In this document: one piece after another, positions 1 to 57,974 of the stretch
Layout of the letters: every line of letters starts with the position of its first letter
Position numbering within the stretch: position 1 is the stretch's first letter
IMG/VR virus record: IMGVR_UViG_3300025392_000002
DNA from: a virus
Lineage: Duplodnaviria > Caudoviricetes
Length of the DNA: 64,000 bases
Strand: one strand, 5' to 3'
Made by a program: the position numbers and the translations under genes
Notes under the pieces: model-generated
Told to the model about the DNA's origin: nothing
Databases searched by the model: none
The model's input: only the letters and a program-made list of their open reading frames with translations

Positions 1-3000
1 ACTACTATTGATAAGCCATGGGCCACTATTAGATACGCCTGCTATCAACTTGAAAATGGATATTTAAATCCTAATTCAAGTTTATTAATTGCAATTAACA
101 AACAGTTCTTACAAAAAGAAGTGTATAACTACGTTACTTACACATATCAAGCAAGTGTAACCGGTACTGCCGCAGGCTCCTTTACCACAGCCAGCACTGC
201 TGGGTTAACTGTAGGCATGCCTATTACATTCTCAGGACAAACAGGAAGTTTAACTTTAGCAACTTTGGCCATTTCTAATAATACTGTTTATTATGTTCAG
301 GCTATTGTTGCAAATACAAGTTTCACTGTTGCAAGTAGTTACGGCGGAAGCGCATTAACTGCCGCAGGAACTGGTACTGCTACTGTAAAATACTATACAT
401 CATTACCAACTGAAATTGAACGTGACACAGGTTACACTATTGATGGATTGGTATTTGATTTAGGTCACGGTGGAACATATAAAACAACTGTTAATACACA
501 GGCATTTTTTAACTCTGCCGGTACTGACTATGTTAATAACTATGTAAAATATGAAATTCAACAGTTTATTGGCGCACAAAAATATTTACTAACACTACTT
601 GGAAATATTTTAAGCAATACTGCACCTACTAACAACTACCAAGCATTAAATGGTATTAGTGCAGGTAGTCGTGCAATTCAAAACATAACAGGCGTTGCAA
701 CTTCAAGTGTAGAGTCTTCTGCACTAACTACGATTACATCATTAAGCAACATAATTACTAACGCAATGACTTTAGGTAATACAAGCCAATTGCCAGCAGT
801 AATTACTCCTGCAAATACTGTTAGTGTTAAAACAGGAACATACAACGAAATATTACCAATCGTTGTTCCATCTTACACTGCTATTGTCGGTGATGAACTA
901 CGTAGTACTATTGTTCAACCAGCAGGCCCGATTAATAATTTAATAGTTGATAAACCTAAATCAGTTGCGGCACTTGTGCGTATGCAATCAATATTGCCAA
1001 ACTTATTAACTAATGCGACCGTAACAGCAAGTACTGGTAATACTCAAACACAGATTACTAATTTACCTTCCGGTGATACAGGAAGTCAGTCGGCAGTTAA
1101 TAGTGTTATGACTGGTATTGCTACTGTTCAGGACATGATTAATAACGGTTATCAAGCCGCGCCAGCATTTAGCTTTACACAACCAACTAACTATAACACA
1201 AGTTATCTTGTTGGATTTGGCGACGGTGCAACACAAATTAAAAATAACTACACATTCATCAAGTATGAAATTGCCAACTTTTTAATCTCGTATAACGTGC
1301 CGGCATGGAGTACTTACGGTACTACTAACCAAGTAGAGACTCTACGTGATATTGGATTTGTACTAGATGGATTGCAGTATGATATGACTTACGGTTGTAA
1401 TAATCAAAGTGTTATCAACGGTAGTTCATACTACTCATTAAACATTAATCAGATTGTTACAACATATCTACCAGCAACTATTGCCGCATTACAACGTGTA
1501 GCCGCAATTATCAGTCAGATTGTAACAGCAACTAGTGTAACAGCTACCGCGCAAAATGCTCCGTATACTGCAACACAGTCTACTAGCGGTACAGCAGGAT
1601 CGGCAGCCGCGGCCGCATTTGCGGCAGCTCGTGTGCAAGACGTTATCTATTGGTTACAAAACGGTTATGCTAATACAAGTACTGGTGTCACTACTGGTAG
1701 TATTTCAACAACTAACGGCGGAACATTGACAGTAACAGCAGTTACTAGCGGTACGTTAATACCAGGAATGCTACTTACTGGTACTGGTGTAAGCACTCCA
1801 ACATATATCGTAAATCAATCTACTGGAGTAACTGCAATCGCTAGCCCGACATTGGCAAGTGGTGGTAGTTCAGGAACCAATACATTTGTTGTATCAAGTG
1901 CAACTGGTATTGTTGCTGGCCAACTAGTAACTGGTAATAACATTCCAAACGGTTCGTATGTTATTTCATCATATACTCCAGGTACTACAACAATTACACT
2001 AGTTAACTACTGGGGATATCCAAGTAACTTTATTAGCCCAGGTAGTGGTACATACAATTTCTACACACCAGGTGGTACAGGTACTTACCTAGTAAGCACA
2101 AGTCAAACAGTAACAAGCACAACTATTACTGGCAATTCAACAATTACTCCTGTCTCAAGCGGTGCTTATGCATTGGCTCCGGCCGCATTGCAAACAGCCT
2201 ATACTATTGCAAATGCAAGAAATAGTGAAATTGCAAGTGATGCTCAAGTATGGGTACAGAAATATTATCAAGCATACTCAATTAGTACATCATTGACTAA
2301 CAGAGATGCTGGCTTAGTTGCCGCAGGGCTTTCTTGGGATTTATTATTACAAACAAACTTTAATAGCATTGCAATTGGCCGTGCTTACAACCGTTTGAAT
2401 ACTAGTGCTCTAGCGTTGTTAGCTAATGCCAATAACGAATTAGTTGCTACACTGGGTGCTTTAAACTTTGTCGGTTATAAGATGAAACAGATTGTGTCTA
2501 GTGGTTCTGTAATTAGAGCGCAAACAACAATCGATGACATGATTCAGTCAATTTACGGAACTGTATCAACAACATTGTCAGTAGCAACAACAAGCACAAA
2601 CGTATTAACAGTAGGAACTACAGCTACCGTTCAACCAGGTATGCAAATTTCGTTTACTGGACTACCAGCAAATATTACAACTACTGCAACCGGTACAACA
2701 ACTAGTACAAACGTAATTACATTATCTGCTACTGTAGCAAGTTTAGGCATTGCGGCTGGACAACAAGTTTACTTTACAGGCGCAGTTGTTGGAAATTTAG
2801 TTCCTAACCAAATGTACTATATAATCAATCCAACTGGTAGTACTATTCAAGTTAGTAATACATTTGGTGGTTCAGCAATAGTATTGAATACTGCTACACC
2901 CGCTACCGCTATGAACGTAATTGTTAACAATGCTGGCGGATTATGGAACAACTACATTTACTATGTGAACACAGTTATTAGCGGAACTACACTAACAATT

Positions 3001-6000
3001 ACTTCAAGTTATAAGAGTGGTACAGCTCTTGTAATTACAAATACTGTTAGCGCCATGACTGCTGTGGCAACTATTAATGCAAGTAGTCAACTTGCAGGTG
3101 CAGTGGCAGGTGCAGAGCGCAATGGTACACTAACTTATGATAACACACTAACTACTATTCAAGGTGCAGAAATATTACGTGCTAATATTAACTTCCTAGC
3201 ATACGAAGGTAGTGCATATACAGCCGCAACTTATGGTGGAACTGTAACTACTACAGCAAGTACTAGCGGAACAATTACAACTAGTTCTGCTCATAACTTA
3301 ACCATCGGCGATCCTGTAAACTTTACAGCAACAACAGTTGTAAGTACAGTTACAGCAACAAATACTAACGGAAATATTACAGTTCTTAATACTACTGGCA
3401 TGGTAGTTAATATGCCAGTGACTTTCTCGGGATCTATGTTTGGCGGATTAAGTAGTAGTACAACATACTATCTCAGAAGTGTTAGTGGTAATACTATTAC
3501 ATTGAGTACAGCATATCCAGCAAGCGGAAGTTTATATACTCCTTCAAGCACTTCAACTGGATCTGCAACTATAACTGTTGGTGGACTATTTGGTGGACTA
3601 AGTGCTACTACAATAACTGGTGCAACACAAGTTTATTGGGTATTGAGTACTCCAACACCAACAACATTTACAGTTTCTACAACACAGTCTGGTTATGGAA
3701 CACAAAGTACCTCAAGTTGGCAAGCTGCCAACGGTGTTGCTACAGTAACTTACTATTATAGTACAGCTAAATGTATTCGTGACACAACAAATATTGTTAA
3801 TGCTTTAGTATATGATTTGCAATTCCCAGGGAATTATAAATCGATGAGAGCGGTAGAGTTGTATAACAATGCTATTAGCGGTTCTGCTACTAAGAATATG
3901 TTCTTAGTTCGCAATGCAACTGGTCTTCGCAATATGACCATGAACGGTTTAACTGGCGCATTAAGTGCGGCCAACGCTAACTTTACAAAACGTCCAACTG
4001 CCGGTGCGTATGCAAGTTTAGACCCAGGCTTTGGGCCAAACGATGCTAACAGCTGGATCTATGCTCGTTCATGCTATACACAAAACTGTACAATGTTTGG
4101 ATATGCTTGCATAGGCGCTAAGGTGGACGGTGCATTACACGCTGGCGGCAATCGTTCTATGGTTGCTAACGACTATACAACTATTATTGGTGACGGTATT
4201 GGATACTGGGTAACTGGTAGTAACGCAGTAGCTGAATTGGTTTCAGTGTTCAACTACTACGGTTATTCTGGATACCTAGCAGAATTAGGCGGTAAGATTC
4301 GTGCTACTAACGGTAACAGTTCATACGGTACATACGGTGTACTAGCTGAAGGTGTTGATACATTTGAAACTCCTATCTATGGAACATTGAACAATAGAAA
4401 TTTCCAAGCACAAATTACAAGTGTTGTAACAAACGCCGCAGACTTCTTGTGGAGACTTGAATTTGCCAATGCTGGTAATAACTACACAAATACAACGCAC
4501 ACACTAAGTTCTCCAGGTTACGGTACTGTAATCGTAGCAGACGAATTTAGAGATGCCGGCGTATTTGAAACACGATTAATTGATAACGGTGATGGTACTA
4601 CAACCAGTGTTGGTGGTACCAGTTATGTATCAGCTGTTAACACAGCACAATTACCGCAAGGTACTTCAACTGGTTTATTAGTACTAGCCGCTACCGATAC
4701 AGCATTAACAAATGCTTATAATGGTATGCGTGTTCAAATTGTAACAGGTACTGCTGTAGGTCAATATGCCAACATTTTAGCGTATTCAAATGGTAGTAAA
4801 AATGCTTTAATTGTTAAAGACAGTTTTGCTCCATTAATTATAACTGCTGCCGCAACAACAAATAACTTGTTTACGGTCACAAGTACTGCCGGTATGTATG
4901 CTGGTATGCCAGTATATGTTGCTAGTCCATTTAGTTCATTATTAGCAACACAAACTGTTTACTATGTAAACTCAGCTAACTTTTCTGCAACTCAGTTTCA
5001 GTTAAGTTTAACTTCTGGAGGTTCAGGAACTGCGGTTACTGTTGGTAGTAACGTATCAGCTTCGACTGTTTCAATTACAGCAACAACTATTACAAATAAC
5101 TTATTGACTGTCACTCCTATAACAGTAACAGTTAATTCAAGTAGCGGTACTACAATTACATTAAGTTCAAGTGCTACTTTAACTGTTGGCGCTCCAATTG
5201 TATTCTCAAGTGCAGTTGGTAGTGTTATAACTTCAGGAACAACTTATTATGTACAAGCAAGTTCGGGTACAAGTTTAAGTATTGCAACTTCTGCAGGAGG
5301 TTCAGCAGTTAGTGTTGGTACAACTACTGGTCTAAGCGTTACAGCAACAGTTGATCCTGTAGCGGCAGGTCAAGCTATTACATTTAGTGCTAGCTTTAAT
5401 GGTATTGATGCTAACACAACATACTTTGTTTCATCAGTAAACCTTAGTACCAGTGCATTTGCACTAGCAAGAGATCCATGGACAAGTACTACCGTAACTA
5501 TTACAGCAACTGGTAGTGTAACTCAAACAGGAACAATAGGATCAGCAATGTATGCCGCTGGTTGGGATCATGTATTACCTGGTTACACTATTAACAATGC
5601 TCCAGATTTAACTTCAGGATATATTGTTGAGCCAAGAATAAACTACTCTGCTCCAGGTTACACAGCCACAGCAAGAACATTAACAAATGCTGTTACAGGC
5701 GGAGCATTAGCCTACGGTAACGGTCGTTATGTTACTGTTGGAACTGGTACTACTACTAATATTTCAACAGATGGTAAATCTTGGTCGAACGGTGGTACTT
5801 TAACTAGCTCAACTTGGAATAGCGTTGTATATGGCGGTGGTTCAGGTGCTACAGCTACAGCAGTAGTTGGCGGCCTAGGCGGCACTGGTGCAGTATTGCA
5901 AGCAGTTGTTGGTACTGGTGCATTTAACCAACAGATTGTTGGTATAACTATTGTTAACGGTGGATACAATTATCTAACTCCTCCAAATATTACTATTGTT

Positions 6001-9000
6001 GGCGGTGGTGGCGCAGGTGCATCTGCTATTTGTACAGTATTAAACGGTGCAATCCAAACTGTAACTATTAGTATTAGCGGTTCTGGATACACAAGCGCAC
6101 CTACTGTGACAGCAGTAACTAGTATTGTTTCAAGTATTACTGCAAACAGCTGGGGTAAGAACTACTTTGTAAACCCAACGGTTACAATTAGTCAACCGCA
6201 AGGACTAAGCCCAACTGCATATCCAACAAATACTTTAATCACTCAAGGAACATACTATCAAACAGCCGTAGGAAGAATTTATCTTTGCGTAACTGGTGGT
6301 ACAACTAGTGCAACTGTTCCATCATTTGATTATTTGACTGCTAGTGGATATACTAATATTCAAAACGGTAGTGCATATCTTACATACATTGCAACACAAG
6401 CACAAGTATCTACACCAACATTGACTAATGCAGGTGTAAGTGCTTTACCGTTAAGTGTTTCTGGTTATGGATATACATCAACACCAACAGTTACTATTGT
6501 TGACGGTGTAGCAAAATTCATTGCAATCAGTAATAGTGCAAGTACTAGTACCAATACAGCTTATAGTTCAAATAATGGTACCACTTGGACCAATACTACA
6601 ACTACTGTTCTAAACTTAAGATCTTTAGCTTATGGTAACGGTTTATACATTGCTGTTGGAGGTGCCTCTGGTTCAGCATCAGCAGTATCAACAACAGATA
6701 TTACAACTGGTTGGAGTAATAAATCAAGTAATATTACAGCTCTTGTATCAGGCTACTATTCAGCTATTGTATACGGTGGATCATATTTTGTTGCCGTACA
6801 AAACGGTGCATTAATTACTAGTGTTACACAAAACGGTAACACTTGGGTACAAGGCGCTAATTTACCATCAGGATTTACTACAGCAGTAAGTATGGCATAT
6901 GGTAATAATCGTTATGTAGTACTAGGTTCAGACGGTAAAGTTGCTTATAGTATCAACAACGGTGGTACACAAACAGTTGCAGGTTGGACCTTAGCTCCAG
7001 CATGTACCGGTACAACAACAAGTGTATTGTCATCAAGCTATACTTGGACTTCTATCACTTATGGTGAAGGCCAGTTCGTCGCAGTATCGCAAGGTACCGT
7101 AGCGGCAACCAGCTGGGACGGTATCAACTGGACAGTAAGAACATTACCAACAAGTACAAACTGGGGCAGTGTTGCATTTGGTAACCCAATCAGTACTACA
7201 TTAGGACCACAGCCATTGTTTGTTGCAGTGACTAGTAGCGGTACAACAGCAGCCGCAAGTATTAGAACAGGCGCTCAGCCGATAGGTCGTATGAAGGCAG
7301 CCAGCGGTTCTATTACTGAAATTCGTATGATAGAGCCAGGAAGTGGTTTCCCTAAAGGTAACGTTACTTCAACAGTTGCATCTACTACAGTAACAGTTAA
7401 TTCTAGTAGTACTACAACTATCACATTAAGTGCTAGTGCTACACTAACTGTTGGTGCACCAGTCACATTTGCTAGTGCTGTTGGAACATTGACTGCTGGT
7501 ACTGTATATTATGTACAAGCAAGTTCAGGTACAAGTTTAAGCGTAGCGGCAACTCCAACTGGTTCAGCAATTAGCGTTGGTACAACTACTGGTCTAAGTG
7601 TAGTTGCTACAATTCAAGCAGTACTGGTTGTAGACGATACAACAAACTTATCAACAAGTATTGCTAATAATCAACCAGTTGAATTTAGCGTAGCCAGTGG
7701 AACATTAACAACTAATACTACTTACTATGTAATTGGTTCAAGTGTTGGAACATCAACATTCCAAGTAACTACAACTGCGGGTAGCATTACACCAGTATCA
7801 TTAACATCTAGTACACCAACTAGTATGATTTATACTGCTGGACCGTTTGTTCAACAGTTCGATACTAACAGAGTTAAAACAGCGGCTACTCGTGTACGCA
7901 CAAGCTATGGAATCCTGGCAAACCCAAGTATTACTAACAAGGGTCTTGGAAACAGTACTGCAACTGTGTCTACATTAGGCGATGGATATGCAGATTTGTT
8001 CCAAAATAGTGCTTACATACAAGTATCTGGTTTATACAGTATGCCTAGTGCAGGTGCTAACGTACAATTTGGTACAACATACACTGGTGTTCCTTGGACT
8101 CCAAGTACTGTGGTTAGAACTGGCGTACAATTAATTGCAACTAACGCGGTAACTGTTGGTAGTACAACAACATTCTACTATAACGTATATACGGTTACCA
8201 ACGGTGGAACAACTGGTACAAGTGCTCCGACAAGTACAGCGGCAAGTGTATCAGATGGTACTGCAACATTAAGCTATGTTGGACAAAATCCAAATGCATG
8301 GTATAAGCTAGTTGCTATTACTAACCAGTTAGGTATTGCCGGAGCATATACAGCACAGTTCCAAGTTAACCCTGCGTTAACTACTCTTACTGCGCCTGTA
8401 CATGGTGTGTTAATTACAACACGTTTGAAGTACAGCCAGGTTCGTTTAACTGGACATGACTTCTTGTATATCGGTACTGGTAACCAAACACAGACTAACT
8501 ATCCATATGTTAATGCGGCAAATGCAATACAGGCAAATCAGCAGTATCCTGTAGCTGGCGGGCGTGTGTTCTTTACAAGTACTGACCAAGACGGTAACTT
8601 TAACGTTGGTAACTTGTTTGGAGTTCAACAGTCAACTGGTACTGCTACATTGAACGCTAGTGCGTTTAACTTAGCTGGATTGCAGAGTTTGACCTTGGGT
8701 GCTATTAACTTAGGTGTTGGATCTGCTACAGTTACACAATTTAGTACAGATCCGTACTTTACAGCTAACAGCGACAACATCGTTCCAACACAAAAAGCAA
8801 TTAAGAGCTATATTACAGCTCAAATTGGTGGCGGATCGAGTAGTTTGAACGTAAATACACTAACCGCTGGACAGATATATATTGCTAATAACAGTATTGG
8901 TTTGGCAGCTACCGTTACTGGTACCACAACAATTAACGTTACTAGTAAATTGAACTTTACAGGTGGTATCGATGGTGCACCAGTATCATTAGCATACTTT

Positions 9001-9012
9001 ATGCAAAAATAA
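1..9012 (+). CDS. Giant virion structural / tail-fibre-like protein, 5'-truncated (>3000 aa)
   Basis: The frame is open from base 1 (TTIDKPWATIRYACYQLENG...), so the true start is upstream of the window, not at GTG 121. Thr/Ser/Gly-rich, with repeated ~75-aa beta modules (G.L..G..YYV...), propeller-like W...AYG.G.FVAV repeats and C-terminal GGRVFFTSTDQDGNF, typical of large myophage virion proteins. Confidence 0.8.
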   Translation, partial: TTIDKPWATIRYACYQLENGYLNPNSSLLIAINKQFLQKEVYNYVTYTYQASVTGTAAGSFTTASTAGLTVGMPITFSGQTGSLTLATLAISNNTVYYVQAIVANTSFTVASSYGGSALTAAGTGTATVKYYTSLPTEIERDTGYTIDGLVFDLGHGGTYKTTVNTQAFFNSAGTDYVNNYVKYEIQQFIGAQKYLLTLLGNILSNTAPTNNYQALNGISAGSRAIQNITGVATSSVESSALTTITSLSNIITNAMTLGNTSQLPAVITPANTVSVKTGTYNEILPIVVPSYTAIVGDELRSTIVQPAGPINNLIVDKPKSVAALVRMQSILPNLLTNATVTASTGNTQTQITNLPSGDTGSQSAVNSVMTGIATVQDMINNGYQAAPAFSFTQPTNYNTSYLVGFGDGATQIKNNYTFIKYEIANFLISYNVPAWSTYGTTNQVETLRDIGFVLDGLQYDMTYGCNNQSVINGSSYYSLNINQIVTTYLPATIAALQRVAAIISQIVTATSVTATAQNAPYTATQSTSGTAGSAAAAAFAAARVQDVIYWLQNGYANTSTGVTTGSISTTNGGTLTVTAVTSGTLIPGMLLTGTGVSTPTYIVNQSTGVTAIASPTLASGGSSGTNTFVVSSATGIVAGQLVTGNNIPNGSYVISSYTPGTTTITLVNYWGYPSNFISPGSGTYNFYTPGGTGTYLVSTSQTVTSTTITGNSTITPVSSGAYALAPAALQTAYTIANARNSEIASDAQVWVQKYYQAYSISTSLTNRDAGLVAAGLSWDLLLQTNFNSIAIGRAYNRLNTSALALLANANNELVATLGALNFVGYKMKQIVSSGSVIRAQTTIDDMIQSIYGTVSTTLSVATTSTNVLTVGTTATVQPGMQISFTGLPANITTTATGTTTSTNVITLSATVASLGIAAGQQVYFTGAVVGNLVPNQMYYIINPTGSTIQVSNTFGGSAIVLNTATPATAMNVIVNNAGGLWNNYIYYVNTVISGTTLTITSSYKSGTALVITNTVSAMTAVATINASSQLAGAVAGAERNGTLTYDNTLTTIQGAEILRANINFLAYEGSAYTAATYGGTVTTTASTSGTITTSSAHNLTIGDPVNFTATTVVSTVTATNTNGNITVLNTTGMVVNMPVTFSGSMFGGLSSSTTYYLRSVSGNTITLSTAYPASGSLYTPSSTSTGSATITVGGLFGGLSATTITGATQVYWVLSTPTPTTFTVSTTQSGYGTQSTSSWQAANGVATVTYYYSTAKCIRDTTNIVNALVYDLQFPGNYKSMRAVELYNNAISGSATKNMFLVRNATGLRNMTMNGLTGALSAANANFTKRPTAGAYASLDPGFGPNDANSWIYARSCYTQNCTMFGYACIGAKVDGALHAGGNRSMVANDYTTIIGDGIGYWVTGSNAVAELVSVFNYYGYSGYLAELGGKIRATNGNSSYGTYGVLAEGVDTFETPIYGTLNNRNFQAQITSVVTNAADFLWRLEFANAGNNYTNTTHTLSSPGYGTVIVADEFRDAGVFETRLIDNGDGTTTSVGGTSYVSAVNTAQLPQGTSTGLLVLAATDTALTNAYNGMRVQIVTGTAVGQYANILAYSNGSKNALIVKDSFAPLIITAAATTNNLFTVTSTAGMYAGMPVYVASPFSSLLATQTVYYVNSANFSATQFQLSLTSGGSGTAVTVGSNVSASTVSITATTITNNLLTVTPITVTVNSSSGTTITLSSSATLTVGAPIVFSSAVGSVITSGTTYYVQASSGTSLSIATSAGGSAVSVGTTTGLSVTATVDPVAAGQAITFSASFNGIDANTTYFVSSVNLSTSAFALARDPWTSTTVTITATGSVTQTGTIGSAMYAAGWDHVLPGYTINNAPDLTSGYIVEPRINYSAPGYTATARTLTNAVTGGALAYGNGRYVTVGTGTTTNISTDGKSWSNGGTLTSSTWNSVVYGGGSGATATAVVGGLGGTGAVLQAVVGTGAFNQQIVGITIVNGGYNYLTPPNITIVGGGGAGASAICTVLNGAIQTVTISISGSGYTSAPTVTAVTSIVSSITANSWGKNYFVNPTVTISQPQGLSPTAYPTNTLITQGTYYQTAVGRIYLCVTGGTTSATVPSFDYLTASGYTNIQNGSAYLTYIATQAQVSTPTLTNAGVSALPLSVSGYGYTSTPTVTIVDGVAKFIAISNSASTSTNTAYSSNNGTTWTNTTTTVLNLRSLAYGNGLYIAVGGASGSASAVSTTDITTGWSNKSSNITALVSGYYSAIVYGGSYFVAVQNGALITSVTQNGNTWVQGANLPSGFTTAVSMAYGNNRYVVLGSDGKVAYSINNGGTQTVAGWTLAPACTGTTTSVLSSSYTWTSITYGEGQFVAVSQGTVAATSWDGINWTVRTLPTSTNWGSVAFGNPISTTLGPQPLFVAVTSSGTTAAASIRTGAQPIGRMKAASGSITEIRMIEPGSGFPKGNVTSTVASTTVTVNSSSTTTITLSASATLTVGAPVTFASAVGTLTAGTVYYVQASSGTSLSVAATPTGSAISVGTTTGLSVVATIQAVLVVDDTTNLSTSIANNQPVEFSVASGTLTTNTTYYVIGSSVGTSTFQVTTTAGSITPVSLTSSTPTSMIYTAGPFVQQFDTNRVKTAATRVRTSYGILANPSITNKGLGNSTATVSTLGDGYADLFQNSAYIQVSGLYSMPSAGANVQFGTTYTGVPWTPSTVVRTGVQLIATNAVTVGSTTTFYYNVYTVTNGGTTGTSAPTSTAASVSDGTATLSYVGQNPNAWYKLVAITNQLGIAGAYTAQFQVNPALTTLTAPVHGVLITTRLKYSQVRLTGHDFLYIGTGNQTQTNYPYVNAANAIQANQQYPVAGGRVFFTSTDQDGNFNVGNLFGVQQSTGTATLNASAFNLAGLQSLTLGAINLGVGSATVTQFSTDPYFTANSDNIVPTQKAIKSYITAQIGGGSSSLNVNTLTAGQIYIANNSIGLAATVTGTTTINVTSKLNFTGGIDGAPVSLAYFMQK

Positions 9013-48296: not shown

Positions 48297-49499
48297 ATGA
48301 TAACAGTTGATGACCTACTAATAAAAATTGTAAACAATTCTTCGCCCACAATTGAAGAATTAATCAGTGCCAAAGATGCTAGGGTACTACGCAGTCTAGC
48401 ATCTTCTATTGGCAGTAATTTTTTTATAACAGAAAATCAATCAAGACTACTGATTAAAATTCTACGTGAAAATACTAAAAAAATAACAATTTTTTCTGAA
48501 GAACTTGTAGATAGTTTATCTAGTCCAATCTGGTCTAAAAAGTTTAGACAAATAGAACAAGTAAAAAAATTGTTTATTGACAACGACACTGATGGTGATT
48601 TAGTCTTAGTAATTGAATTTACATACAGTTCACAGTTCCGTAAAATTTTACAAGAAATAACAAAAAAATGTGAAAATTTAGTCAACGTAATCCCTGGAAA
48701 AAAGTATACTGCTGACCTCACTGAAGCTAATTTAGTAACACTTGTGGACGCACTCGAACCATTAGAGTTTGAAATTAGTGAAACAATTAAGAAACATTAC
48801 GAGACTATCAAGACTTGGTCCGAACAAGAAATTAAAGATCAGTTTTTACTTACACGTATCGAACATAAGAATTTTATCAAGGCCATTACTGCTGATCTTG
48901 GTATTGAGACAACAATCGATCAAAATATTATCAATGATCGAAGTATGCGTTATCAGTATTTTACAGAAAATGCAAAAAATCACGGAGAAACACTTGTTGA
49001 AGTGATTGCTAACAGATCAAAAAATCGTGTATGGATTGATAAGAACCAACACTCGCTAACGGATGTAATATCAAGTGTATTATCTTTACGTAGAGCACCT
49101 ATTCTGGTTGTGTTCAATGATTTGGCAAATAGTAAACATTGTGAATATTTAGAATTATTGTCAACTGCGCTCGATAATAATAATGTAACTGATGGAGTAG
49201 GAATTTATTTTAGACTACCCAATGACGATGCTGGACGTAAGTTTAATACACTGGTAGCAGACAAGCAGTACAACCAAAAAATGGACGAAAACTTACAAGT
49301 TGCTGGAGTGTTAAGTGGGAAAATTCCTAAGTTTTTCTTAACTAATCCTTGGAAGCCTATGAGTGTAATAACTTTAGATAACCGAATGGGTATGCGTCAT
49401 GGTAAGACTGCGGTATACAGTAATTGCTGTGATTGTATAATTGAATGGGCAGAAGAATCTGCAATGCAAGATCAAAGGATAGGTAATCCATGGCGGTAA
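48297..49499 (+). CDS. Hypothetical protein (400 aa) coupled to uvsW
   Basis: Long ORF overlapping the uvsW start; no motif confidently recognised. Confidence 0.7.
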   Translation: MITVDDLLIKIVNNSSPTIEELISAKDARVLRSLASSIGSNFFITENQSRLLIKILRENTKKITIFSEELVDSLSSPIWSKKFRQIEQVKKLFIDNDTDGDLVLVIEFTYSSQFRKILQEITKKCENLVNVIPGKKYTADLTEANLVTLVDALEPLEFEISETIKKHYETIKTWSEQEIKDQFLLTRIEHKNFIKAITADLGIETTIDQNIINDRSMRYQYFTENAKNHGETLVEVIANRSKNRVWIDKNQHSLTDVISSVLSLRRAPILVVFNDLANSKHCEYLELLSTALDNNNVTDGVGIYFRLPNDDAGRKFNTLVADKQYNQKMDENLQVAGVLSGKIPKFFLTNPWKPMSVITLDNRMGMRHGKTAVYSNCCDCIIEWAEESAMQDQRIGNPWR

Positions 49500-50965: not shown

Positions 50966-51472
50966 ATGCAGATATTAACATTAGATAACAAGACATTTTC
51001 ATTAAACAATTTACCGGACGAAGTCGACGAAAATACGCGATTTGCAGTACTAGATAATAGTACACCTGCCGATCCAGACTTTTTCTTTATGCCACTTATA
51101 TTCCTGGAAAGTTTCAATGCTCCAGCAATGGTATTAAGGATTGGGGAGGATGAAATTGCTATGCCTATAGATTGGTGTATTGCCGTAGGAGATAGTACTA
51201 GTGCTTGCGATATAGAAATTTTACCGCTTACTAGTTTAAATGACCGTGGATTCGAAGCATTGTGTTTTAATCCGTTAAGTAGTTTTAGGGTTGAGTTTAA
51301 AAAGATCGAAATCGTTAATTTTTACAATGATGTTAAATGGTATTTTCCTAAAATGAAAAATGGCCAATTACTAGCAACGCCAACACATGGCGGAGACAAA
51401 CCTAATTGTGCATATTTTGTTAAAGAAATATCAAAACAAAACGAAATAATTCAGTTGGATAAAATATTATGA
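50966..51472 (+). CDS. Hypothetical protein, possible catalytically dead Hint-fold
   Basis: The beta-strand pattern maps loosely onto Hint blocks (see findings). Confidence 0.5.
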   Translation: MQILTLDNKTFSLNNLPDEVDENTRFAVLDNSTPADPDFFFMPLIFLESFNAPAMVLRIGEDEIAMPIDWCIAVGDSTSACDIEILPLTSLNDRGFEALCFNPLSSFRVEFKKIEIVNFYNDVKWYFPKMKNGQLLATPTHGGDKPNCAYFVKEISKQNEIIQLDKIL

Positions 51473-52095
51473 GTTTAAAAGTTGCATATTTTCAACCTGT
51501 AGTGTTGGCCATCGATACAGTATCTCCTGTAGAATTTAGTAAAATTTATAGCCTTGCTGAAAACCTGCATAGTCATCCAGAATTGAATGATGCCGACAAT
51601 CCACTGATTAGCATACGTGGTGGGCAACAAATTCAAGTATATCCTAACACCCCGGGGATAAATGTCGACTGGTTAATAAATTATTTTGAAACAGTTTGCC
51701 AGGGATATTTAGAACTTGTAATAGCACAAAGCGGTACAGAGGATTTAAAATTTTGTAAACCAAAAGTTACAAGCATTTGGACCATACGTCAATACGAAGG
51801 CGACTATCAAGAGATGCATAGTCATCCTGGCGGGCATATAAGCGGAAATGTATATATTAGTGCTCCAGAGTTACTGGACAATCGAAAGCCATCCGATAGT
51901 CAAATTTTATTTAGATTACCACAAACTAAAGATGTTAGTAAATTTATAATGAATGATACGTGGAAATACGATCCTACGCCTGGCAGTATTATAATATTTC
52001 CAAGTCATCTACCTCATACTGTTTATCCTTGGAAAGGACAAGGCCATAGGACTGTTATGGCATTTGATGCAGTACTAGTACCAAAGGAAGAATAA
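51469..52095 (+). CDS. Putative 2OG-Fe(II) oxygenase (TIGR02466-like)
   Basis: IWT..Q..GDYQEMHSH...ISGNVY, IFPSHLPHTVYP, RTVMAFD. Confidence 0.85.
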   Translation: MSLKVAYFQPVVLAIDTVSPVEFSKIYSLAENLHSHPELNDADNPLISIRGGQQIQVYPNTPGINVDWLINYFETVCQGYLELVIAQSGTEDLKFCKPKVTSIWTIRQYEGDYQEMHSHPGGHISGNVYISAPELLDNRKPSDSQILFRLPQTKDVSKFIMNDTWKYDPTPGSIIIFPSHLPHTVYPWKGQGHRTVMAFDAVLVPKEE

Positions 52096-52427
52096 TGGGA
52101 ACTCTTAAACCTGGAGCAACTTATATACACGAACGAGTAGACAATGTAGTCTATTCTAGAGAATTTGGGTCCGATCCTAGCACTAGACAAGTAGTGGGTT
52201 GGGATTATAATCCTAATACACCTAGCTTCGATCCACGAAGTGATGGCCGAGGCTGGCCTGCTAATGATAATCGAACCAGCGACGGTCGTCCACTACACGA
52301 TCATATAATGGAAGATAAACTTTGGGGTGAAATTCGAAGAGAAGCAAAAACCAATGTGACTTTACAAAAAGCCTTAGATCGTGCTATAATGATATACAAA
52401 CTAAGCAAGGATAAACTTCGTGAGTGA
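52095..52427 (+). CDS. Hypothetical protein
   Basis: Coupled ORF with AAGGA RBS. Confidence 0.65.
   Translation: MGTLKPGATYIHERVDNVVYSREFGSDPSTRQVVGWDYNPNTPSFDPRSDGRGWPANDNRTSDGRPLHDHIMEDKLWGEIRREAKTNVTLQKALDRAIMIYKLSKDKLRE
52361..52390 (+). promoter_or_regulatory. Intragenic sigma70-type promoter for the gp62-like / Zn-finger / mini-DnaE genes
   Basis: TTTACA-18 nt-TATAAT with an extended -10 (TGc-TATAAT). Confidence 0.55.
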
Positions 52428-52899
52428 AAAGATTGAGCTGAAAGAAAAGCTAGCGGCAGTAGATCAAAACGTTCGAGAATTATGGGATGCAATGGATACC
52501 GATCAGCAAAAAGCTCTCAAGAATGAATTTTTTATACTTAACAGATATGTTAGTAGTGGCGGCACAACTGACAGAGAAATCCAAGAACATTTTGTATTGA
52601 CTGTTAACGAATACTTTAATAAAAACTGGAATTTATTACAAAAACATCCTAAACTTATGTGGATGTTATTGTGTATGTGTAGTTATAATGGCGAACGTGT
52701 ATTTTGGCATGAATGGATCGGACATAAAAAGAAAACTGGATCTAACAGTAAAAAGATTAAATTTTTAGAAGAATTATATCCAAACAAAAAACGTGATGAA
52801 GTTGAAATGCTTAGTCAGTTGATGACTGATAAAGAAATAAAAGATCTAGCACGTAAGTATGGAATGGATGAAGCTACGATTGCTAAGAAATTAAAATGA
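52420..52899 (+). CDS. Clamp-loader small subunit-like protein (T4 gp62-like)
   Basis: FILNRYVS...N...W.LL...HEWI..KK...LEELYP...L...MT.KEIK resembles cyanophage-type gp62. Confidence 0.5.
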   Translation: MSEKIELKEKLAAVDQNVRELWDAMDTDQQKALKNEFFILNRYVSSGGTTDREIQEHFVLTVNEYFNKNWNLLQKHPKLMWMLLCMCSYNGERVFWHEWIGHKKKTGSNSKKIKFLEELYPNKKRDEVEMLSQLMTDKEIKDLARKYGMDEATIAKKLK

Positions 52900-53588
52900 T
52901 GGCCTTGGTAAATCAACCTTATACTTGTGGGCATTGCGGCAAAGGGTTTATGCAAGAAAAAACCTTGTTTGTTCATGTATGTGAACAAAAACGCAGGCAC
53001 ATGGCACGTACAGAAAAACATGTTGTGCTAGGGTATGATACATATCAGAAATTTTATAAACAAGCACAACCCAACGGTAAAGATAAAACATATGAAGATT
53101 TTTGTAAAAGTCCTTATTATAACGCCTTTGTTAAGTTTGGCAGTTTTGTCAGCAATGTTAATCCTCTCTACCCGGACCAATTTATCGAGTGGATTGTTCG
53201 AAGCGGTGTTAAACTCGATCACTGGTGTAGAGACGAGCTCTACGAACAATATGTCCTCGAACTTATTAAAAGAGAACCAGTTGAAGTCGCACTAGAACGT
53301 AGCATTAGTCATATGTTAAGTTGGGGTAATGATAATACCGCAAGTTGGAATCATTACTTCCTTTATGTTAGTTTGAGTCGTGCTTGCTATGATATTAAAG
53401 ATGGTAAGATAAGTCCGTGGCTTGTTTTAAATAGTGCTAGTGGAAAAGCTATGTTACAAAAATTTAGTGACGAGCAATTAGCCCATGTACAAAATGTTAT
53501 AGATCCGCCGTTCTGGGTCAGCAAATTTAAAAAACTTCCTAATGATGTAGACTTGGTTAAACAAGTTGTAAAAGAGAGTAATATATAA
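52896..53588 (+). CDS. Hypothetical protein with an N-terminal C2HC/C2H2-type zinc finger
   Basis: YTCGHCGKGFMQEKTLFVHVC. Confidence 0.7.
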   Translation: MMALVNQPYTCGHCGKGFMQEKTLFVHVCEQKRRHMARTEKHVVLGYDTYQKFYKQAQPNGKDKTYEDFCKSPYYNAFVKFGSFVSNVNPLYPDQFIEWIVRSGVKLDHWCRDELYEQYVLELIKREPVEVALERSISHMLSWGNDNTASWNHYFLYVSLSRACYDIKDGKISPWLVLNSASGKAMLQKFSDEQLAHVQNVIDPPFWVSKFKKLPNDVDLVKQVVKESNI

Positions 53589-54157
53589 TGCCAGATATTG
53601 ATATCGACTTTGCTGATAGAACTCATGCGCTAAGTATTTTAAAGCATGTTGATGCTACTATTGATACTTTTAAAAAACATAATACTGGAATATATTGTAC
53701 GTCTATCCCGTACAATCCAGTGACAGGTATGAGTACACTAGCTTATAAAGAAGCAGAGGATAGAGGATATTTTAAAATAGATTTTTTGAATGTAAGTGTT
53801 TATGAAGGCGTTAAAAATAGAGAACACTTGACTATACTAATGGAGACTGAACCTTTATGGGAGCTTTTACTGGAAGACGATTTCGTCAACAAACTCTTTC
53901 ACGTGAACGGGCACGGTTCTATATTGAGACAAATGAAACCTACGACGATAGAACAACTAGCTTCAGTATTGGCTATGATAAGGCCCGCGAAACGTCACTT
54001 GATTGGAAAGGATTGGAATACTGTAATGTCAGAGATTTGGGTCAGACCCGAAAACGATGAGTATTTCTTTAAGAAGGCACATGCCATTGCCTATGCACAC
54101 GTAATTGTAGTACAGATGAATTTAATTTGCGAACAACTAGCGAACTTTACGGACTAA
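53588..54157 (+). CDS. Miniature DNA polymerase III alpha (DnaE/C-family)-like catalytic core, 189 aa
   Basis: DnaE motifs in order: PDIDIDF, KHNTG, GYFKIDFLNV, LRQMKP..IEQLA.VLAMIRPA, YFFKKAHAIAYA. Confidence 0.8.
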   Translation: MPDIDIDFADRTHALSILKHVDATIDTFKKHNTGIYCTSIPYNPVTGMSTLAYKEAEDRGYFKIDFLNVSVYEGVKNREHLTILMETEPLWELLLEDDFVNKLFHVNGHGSILRQMKPTTIEQLASVLAMIRPAKRHLIGKDWNTVMSEIWVRPENDEYFFKKAHAIAYAHVIVVQMNLICEQLANFTD

Positions 54158-54511
54158 CTGCACACTTTTTCTTTTGACCCGTTTCAGTGTAAGATTCATT
54201 AAATTAACTACTGGCCCAAGTATTACACGAGTATCTTTGCTATTAAATGTCTTAATAGCATAGGCAAATGGTCCTATAGAATCCCTACAAAAAATATTAA
54301 TAGGATATTGTCTGTTTGATTCCCACCACCAAATTTCGCCTATTTCCAAAAACTGGGTCTTTTCTTCAGGTGTTTTCAAGGCATTGAGATCGTAAAAGCT
54401 AGTTACAAACTGGTCTTGATTTATTATGATTCCTACATATTCATCAGTGCCGTAGTTTATGACGCTGATAAAGGGTAAGTTTTGTTCTATATTGTCTCTT
54501 AATTTTGCCAT
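54137..54511 (-). CDS. Hypothetical protein
   Basis: 124-aa ORF filling the gap (PFISVI.YG..EYVGII, WWWESNR..PINIF); convergent on the mini-DnaE. Confidence 0.7.
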   Translation of the reverse strand: MAKLRDNIEQNLPFISVINYGTDEYVGIIINQDQFVTSFYDLNALKTPEEKTQFLEIGEIWWWESNRQYPINIFCRDSIGPFAYAIKTFNSKDTRVILGPVVNLMNLTLKRVKRKSVQLVRKVR

Positions 54512-56393: not shown

Positions 56394-56490
56394 TTTTATT
56401 TTGAAACCATGGCACTGGTACAAAAGCCGCCAAGAATTTAAACGTCGAATGGAAGAATTACGGAAACGTGATCCTTTTATCTACAAATGA
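56377..56490 (+). CDS. 37-aa basic micro-protein (not in the ORF track)
   Basis: MKKLIDFILKPWHWYKSRQEFKRRMEELRKRDPFIYK; AAGGA RBS; overlaps the primase end and has an ATGA overlap with the carbamoyltransferase. Confidence 0.7.
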   Translation: MKKLIDFILKPWHWYKSRQEFKRRMEELRKRDPFIYK

Positions 56491-57974
56491 TTAGTTGGGG
56501 GATATCGGCAAACAGTCATGATGCGGCAATAGCTGTATTTGCTGATGAAAAACTAGTATTTGCCAGCCATAGTGAAAGATACAGCGGTATTAAAAACGAT
56601 AGAGATCTGTGTAGAGAATTAGTTGCAGATGCCAAAAAGTTTGGATACCCTGACAAAATCTATTGGTATGAAAAGCCTTTTAAAAAAACTCTTCGACAGT
56701 TATTTGCAGGGCAAGGTTGGAAACGTCGTGATAACGATATTGAAATCTATATGGCTAGATACGAAATTGACGCACCTATTACCTATGTTGATCACCATCG
56801 TAGTCATGCCGCGGCAGGATTTTATACAAGTCCTTTTGAAACTGCTTGTATAGTTGTAATAGATGCTATCGGTGAATTTACCACATATAGTTTGTGGTCA
56901 GGAGTGGGTAAAGAATTACATTTGATTGATAGCATAGGATTTCCTGACAGTTTAGGACTATTCTATTCGGCCATGACTCAGCGTGTAGGACTAACACCCA
57001 ACGAGGATGAATATATTCTTATGGGAATGGCCGCATACGGTGACCCATCTCGATTAACTAAGAGTTTACTGGATGATTTTGTAAAATTACCAAATAATGA
57101 TTGGAACAGGCCCTATCAAATAAAACAAAATTTACACAGGGGATGCCGAGACTGGAGACCAGATCTAACAGTGTCCGATAGCTTTGATATTGCAGCCGCA
57201 ACCCAGCAAGTGTATGAAATGGCATTTGAAAGAATATTGTATCAAGCCTCTCAAGAAGTGGATCTAACCAATAATTTAGTTTTGATGGGCGGGTGTGCTC
57301 TTAATTGTAGTGCTAACAGATTGACCGGAAAGTATTTTAAAAATACTTGGATATATCCTAATCCTGGAGATGCTGGCAGTGCCATAGGTGCTGTATTAGC
57401 AAAAAATCCAGATTGGAAAGATTATACAGACTGGTCCAATATATTTCTAGGCTATGACATGGGATATCGTTCTTCAAATGAAGATATTGTATCCTACTTG
57501 GAAGAAAATAAAATCTGCGGAGTTGCCCGTGGAAGAGCAGAGTTTGGACCACGTGCCTTAGGTAATAGAAGTTTATTAGCAGATCCACGTGGTAAAGATA
57601 TAAAGGATAGAGTAAATGCAATTAAACAACGACAAGAATTTAGACCTTTTGCACCAGCAATACTCGAAGAACATGTTGACACGTACTTTGATATGCCTCA
57701 CGGTTGGGATAATAGTAGGTTTATGCAAGTGGTCGCTCGTTGCAGGACTCCTGAGTTATTTCCTGCTATCATACATCGTGACGGAACATCTCGTGTTCAA
57801 ACTGTACCGAACGATGGTAGGCCATTTAGAAAACTCTTAGAACTTTGGTATAAAGAAACTGGATGTCCAATATTGCTCAATACCAGTCTAAATATCAAAG
57901 GCAAACCTATGGTAAACAATCATGCAGATGCAAGAAACTTTGAACGCCATTACGGTGTTAAAGTGTTTAATTAA
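56487..57974 (+). CDS. Carbamoyltransferase (NodU/CmcH/TobZ family)
   Basis: SHDAA, ERYS.IK, HH.SHAA, DAIGE, MGMAAYG, GGCALN, PGDAG, EFGPRALGNRS, RPFAP, DGTSRVQTV, LNTSLN. Confidence 0.95.
   Translation: MISWGISANSHDAAIAVFADEKLVFASHSERYSGIKNDRDLCRELVADAKKFGYPDKIYWYEKPFKKTLRQLFAGQGWKRRDNDIEIYMARYEIDAPITYVDHHRSHAAAGFYTSPFETACIVVIDAIGEFTTYSLWSGVGKELHLIDSIGFPDSLGLFYSAMTQRVGLTPNEDEYILMGMAAYGDPSRLTKSLLDDFVKLPNNDWNRPYQIKQNLHRGCRDWRPDLTVSDSFDIAAATQQVYEMAFERILYQASQEVDLTNNLVLMGGCALNCSANRLTGKYFKNTWIYPNPGDAGSAIGAVLAKNPDWKDYTDWSNIFLGYDMGYRSSNEDIVSYLEENKICGVARGRAEFGPRALGNRSLLADPRGKDIKDRVNAIKQRQEFRPFAPAILEEHVDTYFDMPHGWDNSRFMQVVARCRTPELFPAIIHRDGTSRVQTVPNDGRPFRKLLELWYKETGCPILLNTSLNIKGKPMVNNHADARNFERHYGVKVFN

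Follow-up and report, generated by a model that had tools for sequence, protein, structure and literature searches.

A 189-residue phage protein is the C-terminal unit of a split, minimal DNA polymerase III alpha and probably serves templated DNA synthesis in an accessory role

A "minimal, split DNA polymerase III alpha" has been predicted from sequence for the group 2.2 jumbo phages, that is, the RaK2/121Q/PA5oct/Atu_ph07-like phages, and this split enzyme was proposed as a model for the ancestral bacterial replicase (Iyer et al., 2021; Viruses 13:63, PMC7824862). Among isolated phages the C-terminal unit (C-unit) is represented by gene 16 of 121Q, EST35_0220 of PA5oct, and Phosso 437 ("DnaE-like DNA polymerase III alpha"), and the GenBank and RefSeq labels of family members read either "DNA polymerase" or "DnaE-like DNA polymerase III alpha". 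A literature search found no biochemical or other experimental study of any member. For the bacterial enzyme, cryo-EM structures of the E. coli Pol III ternary complex have been described in a 2026 preprint. According to this work, R362-G363-S364 on palm strand β1, D401 and D403 on strand β2, and R390, R709, K714, and K715 are located near the incoming dGTP, as are Y754, F756, N757, and H760 of a helix-loop-helix. [quoted passage not shown] The exchanges R362A and K553A abolish activity in E. coli, and R390A causes a 27-fold lower efficiency (2026 preprint).

The window, by which we mean the whole 64-kb stretch of phage DNA that was analysed, carries one gene of this family (Table 1; single copy by C-unit profile, E=6e-82). 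Its product, P0001, is the C-terminal unit of the split arrangement already published by Iyer et al. (2021; PMC7824862), and with it the window contributes only another member of a known family. P0001 shares family, length, boundaries, catalytic residues, and synteny with the C-units of group 2.2. It differs from those of the isolates in its origin from an uncultured phage and in the presence of a carbamoyltransferase gene between the primase and helicase genes. Comparison of 15 kb with phage records by megablast gave no match, i.e. there is no close sequenced isolate. In tblastn searches the C-unit gene was found in jumbo phages only (96 records), with relatives of 31-54% identity in Atu_ph07, Phosso, PA5oct, 121Q/RaK2-like phages, GAP32, CBB, XacN1, and SCTP-2. 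Among the PHROGs families, P0001 matches phrog_11778 ("DNA polymerase"; E=1.6e-67, residues 3-183) and also the full-length phage DnaE family phrog_405 (E=3e-7), whereas Pfam yields only a sub-threshold match to the Pol III fingers (E=0.021). The gene appears to be translationally coupled to its upstream neighbour, as the purine-rich AAAGAGAG is located about 9 nt 5' of the start codon and the preceding stop codon overlaps this ATG. At its 3' end, the final 21 nt are shared with a convergent ORF.

The preliminary description of this DNA had recognised a 189-aa ORF starting at MPDIDIDF with the motifs of DnaE in their usual order, and the ORF translation, the motif map, and profile alignment all agree with this claim. 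When mapped on the K-12 record of E. coli DnaE by profile alignment (hhalign) and motif positions, the C-unit motifs are collinear with the bacterial protein (E=7e-6). M1-F8 correspond to E. coli M399-F406, so that D3, D5, and D7 take the places of D401, D403, and D405, and the octapeptide MPDIDIDF is identical to residues 413-420 of M. tuberculosis DnaE1. Further along the chain, K30-H31 match K510-H511, ILRQMKP matches LIKRLQP, and F161..A170 match F756..A765. A phmmer search against PDB sequences likewise matched M. tuberculosis DnaE1 in four separate segments that follow one another in collinear order. The distances between the motifs reveal where the protein has been shortened, in each case in frame. 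The DxD-to-KH spacing is 82 residues shorter than in E. coli DnaE, which corresponds to the thumb; the KxD-to-RP spacing is reduced by 17 residues; and the RP-to-FKKxH spacing by 88, which takes out YQEQV (686-690) and RRAMGKK (709-715). The in-frame deletion of the thumb and of the YQEQ..RRAMGKK finger segment, as stated in the preliminary description, is thus confirmed by motif spacing. The PHP, HhH, and OB domains are absent from the ORF, again as described, and the thumb is missing as well.

Table 1. Coordinates of the C-unit gene, its motifs, and adjoining features in the window, together with equivalent E. coli DnaE residues. Conservation was counted among 92 C-unit members about 30-58% identical to P0001, or among 12 N-units.
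Feature	Coordinates	Strand	E. coli DnaE equivalent	Conservation	Basis or remark
Gene for a 230-aa phage-only protein (phrog_11058) with N-terminal C2H2-like zinc finger (sub-threshold Pfam)	52896..53588	+			Coupled to C-unit gene
Translational coupling site: purine-rich AAAGAGAG, then TAA 53586-53588 overlapping ATG 53588-53590 (TAATG)	53571..53590	+			Read from sequence
C-unit gene, split minimal DNA polymerase III alpha (Mg2+-/template-binding)	53588..54157	+			189-aa ORF, protein P0001
D3-I-D5-I-D7, palm strand	53594..53608	+	D401, D403 (metal-binding Asp); D405	D3 91/92; D5 91/92; D7 90/92	Position map
K63-I-D65	53774..53782	+	K553; D555 (third catalytic Asp)	K63 92/92; D65 92/92	hhalign column match
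R132-P133, templating-nucleotide contact	53981..53986	+	R639-P640	R132 92/92; P133 92/92	hhalign
Y159..H165, helix-loop-helix of the nascent base-pair pocket	54062..54082	+	Y754..H760 (Y159 = Y754; F161 = F756; H165 = H760)	Y159 66/92; F161 77/92; K162 84/92; H165 91/92	Motif map
Convergent 124-aa ORF (phrog_11637)	54137..54511	-			21-nt overlap with C-unit 3' end
N-unit R137-G138-S139			R362-G363-S364	12/12	
N-unit Asp/Glu			R390	12/12	
Deleted			R709, R710, K714, K715		
Fusion loci	L121:1066-2193 and L124:519-1649				

The predicted fold agrees with this map. The AlphaFold2 model of P0001 was obtained without templates from a 92-sequence alignment (A1) and has a mean pLDDT of 96.2 and a pTM of 0.88, though DnaE structures were part of the AlphaFold training. 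In a Foldseek search against the PDB the top 17 matches are all of the Pol III alpha type, with a best E of 2.8e-3 and thus none at E<=0.001; the probabilities are 0.99-1.00 for the top eight matches and, after the Pol III alpha-type chains, drop to 0.08 or less. An exhaustive search with VIA-align was decisive, the top seven matches all being C-family polymerases (5lew, 3f2b, 2hpi, 5m1s, 5fku, 9qpc, and 7pu7) that align over 183-188 of the 189 residues with Z-scores of 6.3-9.5 and an rmsd of 3.4-4.0 Å. The closest of them are 5lew (DnaE1; Z 9.5), 3f2b (PolC; Z 9.3), and 2hpi (Thermus alpha; Z 9.2), with 184-188 aligned residues, as compared to Z 4.1 for the best unrelated chain. Structural and profile comparison with Pol III alpha, which had been suggested as a check, thus both lead to a C-family palm, with an agreement well above chance level. 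The structural alignments cover E. coli residues 401-784 and end at residue 784. P0001 is a compacted form of the part of DnaE that spans residues 399-784 in E. coli, without thumb and index finger. It retains palm strands β2-β5 with the three metal-binding Asp, the residues that contact template and primer, and the helix-loop-helix of the base-pair pocket. In common with bacterial DnaE and PolC (5lew, 2hpi, 3f2b, 5fku), it has the Pol-beta-like palm, the D401/D403/D555 triad, and the counterparts of K553, R639-P640, and Y754..H760. However, the bacterial proteins have 1100-1400 aa as opposed to about 190 aa in P0001, which lacks PHP, thumb, the basic segment of the index finger, the beta-clamp motif, HhH, and OB. 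In addition, the palm of the mini-enzyme is split between β1 and β2 into two genes, and R390 is replaced by Asp or Glu. With its 189 aa and the thumb and index finger removed, P0001 does not qualify as a canonical family C replicase, which would have PHP, thumb, full fingers, clamp motif, OB, and more than 1000 aa.

The missing portion of the palm is found on a second gene. When the whole records of Phosso, 121Q, and PA5oct were searched with Pfam PF07733, a single ORF of about 170-180 aa was detected above the cut-off in each (profile positions ~16-97), and this N-terminal unit (N-unit) is encoded 31-220 kb from the C-unit gene in the relatives' genomes. Among close IMG/VR relatives, whose C-units are 70-80% identical, the N-unit is present on 4/4 contigs with a completeness of 51% or more, where it lies about 160-185 kb from the C-unit in contig coordinates, and on 0/6 fragments whose completeness does not exceed 42%. 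A profile search of the 64-kb window retrieved no N-unit (best E=0.46); judging from the relatives, we infer that the partner is encoded elsewhere in this phage's own genome. Residues 98-167/168 of the N-unit correspond to E. coli 323-392/393 (phmmer E=4e-4; hhalign E=5e-9), and the N-unit C-termini follow the pattern ..GVGRGSS..LD..(D/E)FL(R/K/N). In E. coli numbering, the last residue of the N-unit thus corresponds to N393 and the first of the C-unit to M399, so that the two units abut, and the cut lies between palm strands β1 (GS motif) and β2 (DxD) in the strand nomenclature of the 2026 preprint. The GS motif had been reported as absent. This is correct for the C-unit ORF, but the motif has not been lost: it resides on the separate N-unit gene of about 170 aa in related genomes and is joined to the C-unit in three natural fusions.

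These fusions (P0226, P0273, and P0274) are metagenomic proteins of 375-376 aa from different samples, share 78-81% mutual identity, and carry Pfam PF07733. Their C-terminal half is 34-36% identical to P0001 and has the same motifs; they differ from P0001 by the N-unit, which is fused ahead through a linker of about 10 residues. They occupy the C-unit locus and are followed by the same convergent ORF (beside P0226, E=6e-7) and by a gene for a ~315-aa protein. As far as we have seen, the three independent fusions are new relative to Iyer et al. (2021). The fused form is rare, with 3 clusters versus thousands that are split, and since the nearest relatives of the fusions by similarity are stand-alone C-units (49-58% identity), sequence similarity suggests that fusion may be secondary to the split form. 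The AlphaFold model of P0226 (mean pLDDT 62.9, pTM 0.39, residues 175-264 below 50), which was built from a mixed and probably shallow alignment (A6), is too poor for conclusions on the packing of the halves. Another metagenomic protein, P0287 (335 aa), combines a Helicase_C Pfam domain with 74% of a C-unit at 53% identity and may represent a further fusion or, alternatively, a gene call that merged two genes.

The C-unit gene is embedded in a replication and recombination block that contains a T4-like set of genes for SSB, RecA-like, UvsY, UvsW, primase, and DnaB proteins; the window further encodes sheath, tail-tube, and terminase genes. In Phosso, 121Q, and PA5oct the order UvsW, small ORFs, ~230-aa protein, C-unit, convergent small ORF, virion protein, primase, and DnaB is conserved. 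The position of the gene directly upstream of the C-unit is likewise filled in PA5oct and nearly so in 121Q, and the tail-to-tail pairing with a homologue of the convergent ORF was observed in all relatives examined (Phosso, 121Q, PA5oct, and close metagenomic relatives), including the fused lineage. The ORFs at 52420, 52896, and 54137 had earlier been suggested as candidate partners. None of them is a DnaE fragment: they have no polymerase-related Pfam or PHROG match, and no N-unit profile match exists in the window. The ORFs at 50966 and 52095 also lack polymerase-related Pfam or PHROG matches. Between UvsY and UvsW, a 400-aa ORF (48297-49499, plus strand) has no match in Pfam or PHROGs, and its identification as the counterpart of the 272-aa "DNA polymerase exonuclease subunit" that 121Q encodes at that position was ruled out (E=3.2). 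A 2OG-Fe(II) oxygenase (51469-52095, plus strand) is encoded within the replication block, and a Nol-like carbamoyltransferase (56487-57974, plus strand) is inserted between the primase and the DnaB-like helicase. In 121Q, PA5oct, and Phosso the corresponding positions are occupied by neither gene, and both enzymes could act on nucleotides or DNA. At the other end of the window, an open reading frame of giant size (1-9012, plus strand; at least 3003 aa) runs off the 5' end. A family B polymerase ORF of 825-1013 aa is present in 3/3 complete relatives (Phosso, 121Q, and PA5oct) and in 3/5 large contigs; no such gene was found in the 64-kb window.

From these data we consider it probable that P0001 is the C-terminal unit of a two-gene minimal Pol III alpha that, together with the N-unit, carries out two-metal templated synthesis in an accessory role. 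The C-unit alone would form no active site, because β1 with the Arg-Gly-Ser motif for dNTP binding is located on the distant N-unit of about 170 aa. Fold logic and the existence of the fusions suggest that N-unit and C-unit assemble by completing one β-sheet in trans. The resulting complex would extend a template-bound primer with dNTPs through the conventional two-metal mechanism, and it may do so with a more open pocket. Since PHP, proofreading, clamp-binding, and OB parts as well as the basic residues of the index finger are lacking, it would probably be a distributive short-patch enzyme that operates beside the family B replicase and not the main replicase. Possible tasks include gap filling and recombination-dependent or primer-proximal synthesis. 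Templated use of dNTPs is favoured by the retention of the steric-gate His and the base-stacking Tyr. On the other hand, R709, R710, K714, and K715 are deleted, the position of R390 is acidic in 12/12 N-units, the thumb that tracks the minor groove is gone, and the Tyr occurs in only 66/92 members. The preliminary description had stated that the Arg residues binding the triphosphate are missing, which is true for R709/R710/K714/K715 and for R390 (here Asp/Glu) but not for the equivalents of R362-G363-S364 and K553, which are invariant. Just after the acidic R390 position, the N-units (alignment A2; for example L099:1501-2004, minus strand) have a conserved terminal Arg or Lys (FLR/FIK), a basic chain end that might make up for the loss of R390.

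In a set of 5.8 billion proteins, P0001 is matched by no fewer than 8000 clusters formed at 90% identity (all 8000 scored candidates matched); the best 120 of these matches have 186-204 aa and often bear the JGI label "DNA polymerase III alpha subunit". An exhaustive search of representatives yielded 414 clusters at 50% identity. In 80/80 IMG/VR loci examined the ORF is intact, with 186-195 aa and the DxDxD..KxD..RP pattern, and dN/dS (Nei-Gojobori) is 0.06-0.10 against the window gene, with a median of 0.13 over 414 pairs with 0.1<dS<1.5. The catalytic Asp are kept in 98-100% of the members, and H31 and G34 are at least 97% conserved among the 92. The dN/dS values, the conservation of the Asp, and the intactness of the homologous ORFs, which had been proposed as checks, thus all support the earlier view that the gene is under selection and does not decay. 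That P0001 is a pseudogene or the decaying fragment of a formerly full-length DnaE gene, an idea favoured solely by its small size relative to DnaE, is therefore rejected and practically negligible as an explanation; thousands of homologues have equal length and boundaries, and synteny is kept between phages that are only 40-54% identical. P0001 could also be a catalytically silent subunit with a structural or regulatory task, for instance a DNA- or replisome-binding module that has retained DnaE-like residues. Large parts of the polymerase are gone, the literature search revealed no demonstrated activity for any member, and the neighbours form a conserved block of small proteins without assigned function. 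However, the three metal-binding Asp, K63, R132, and H165 are near-invariant across members only 30-55% identical, the RGS motif of the N-unit is invariant, and such residues are normally lost in inactive homologues. We therefore regard a silent subunit as improbable.

If P0001 contributes to catalysis, the reaction could still differ from templated synthesis. The split enzyme might be a repurposed nucleotidyltransferase that performs untemplated addition, makes a nucleotide-derived product, or incorporates or bypasses modified bases through its open pocket. This would be in line with the loss of the thumb and of the index finger, including R709/R710/K714/K715 that wall the nascent base-pair pocket, with the acidic residue at the R390 position in all N-units, with the family B replicase that the relatives already possess, and with the 2OG-Fe(II) oxygenase and carbamoyltransferase genes in the same gene block. 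Nevertheless, the template contact R132-P133 and the primer phosphate ligand K63 are invariant and would be dispensable without a template, as would the dNTP steric-gate His (91/92) in a template-independent enzyme, and we consider such a repurposing rather unlikely. The opposite possibility, that the two-piece Pol III alpha serves as principal replicase with the family B enzyme in a secondary position, might be suggested by the location of the gene among primase, helicase, and recombination genes and by its status as a core gene of the phage group. This seems very unlikely, because the clamp-binding, proofreading, and processivity parts are absent and the relatives possess T4-type clamp-loader genes in addition to a family B polymerase of full size. 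The earlier proposal of "one subunit of a split replicase" should be modified accordingly. That P0001 is one subunit of a split enzyme is supported by the N-unit and the fusions, but "replicase" was an overstatement considering the distribution of the family B polymerase among the relatives.

The C-unit gene belongs to the core of a jumbo phage group that is very abundant in the environment, and the family shows the limit to which family C polymerases have been trimmed, with about 360 residues in two chains versus more than 1100. As by-products, the single-chain fusions, the exact split point, and the map of kept and lost dNTP contacts would ease the design of bench tests. A more far-reaching assumption, which we regard as doubtful at present, is that the pair of N-unit and C-unit is a fully active and self-sufficient templated DNA polymerase of about 360 residues with a specialised job beyond that of the family B replicase. 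If this were true, it would be the smallest family C polymerase, and the 375-aa natural fusions would represent ready-made single-chain versions of the enzyme. Lacking the index-finger wall and with an acidic residue at the R390 position, its open pocket would then be suited for copying or incorporating modified bases, or for lesion or gap synthesis in recombination-dependent replication.
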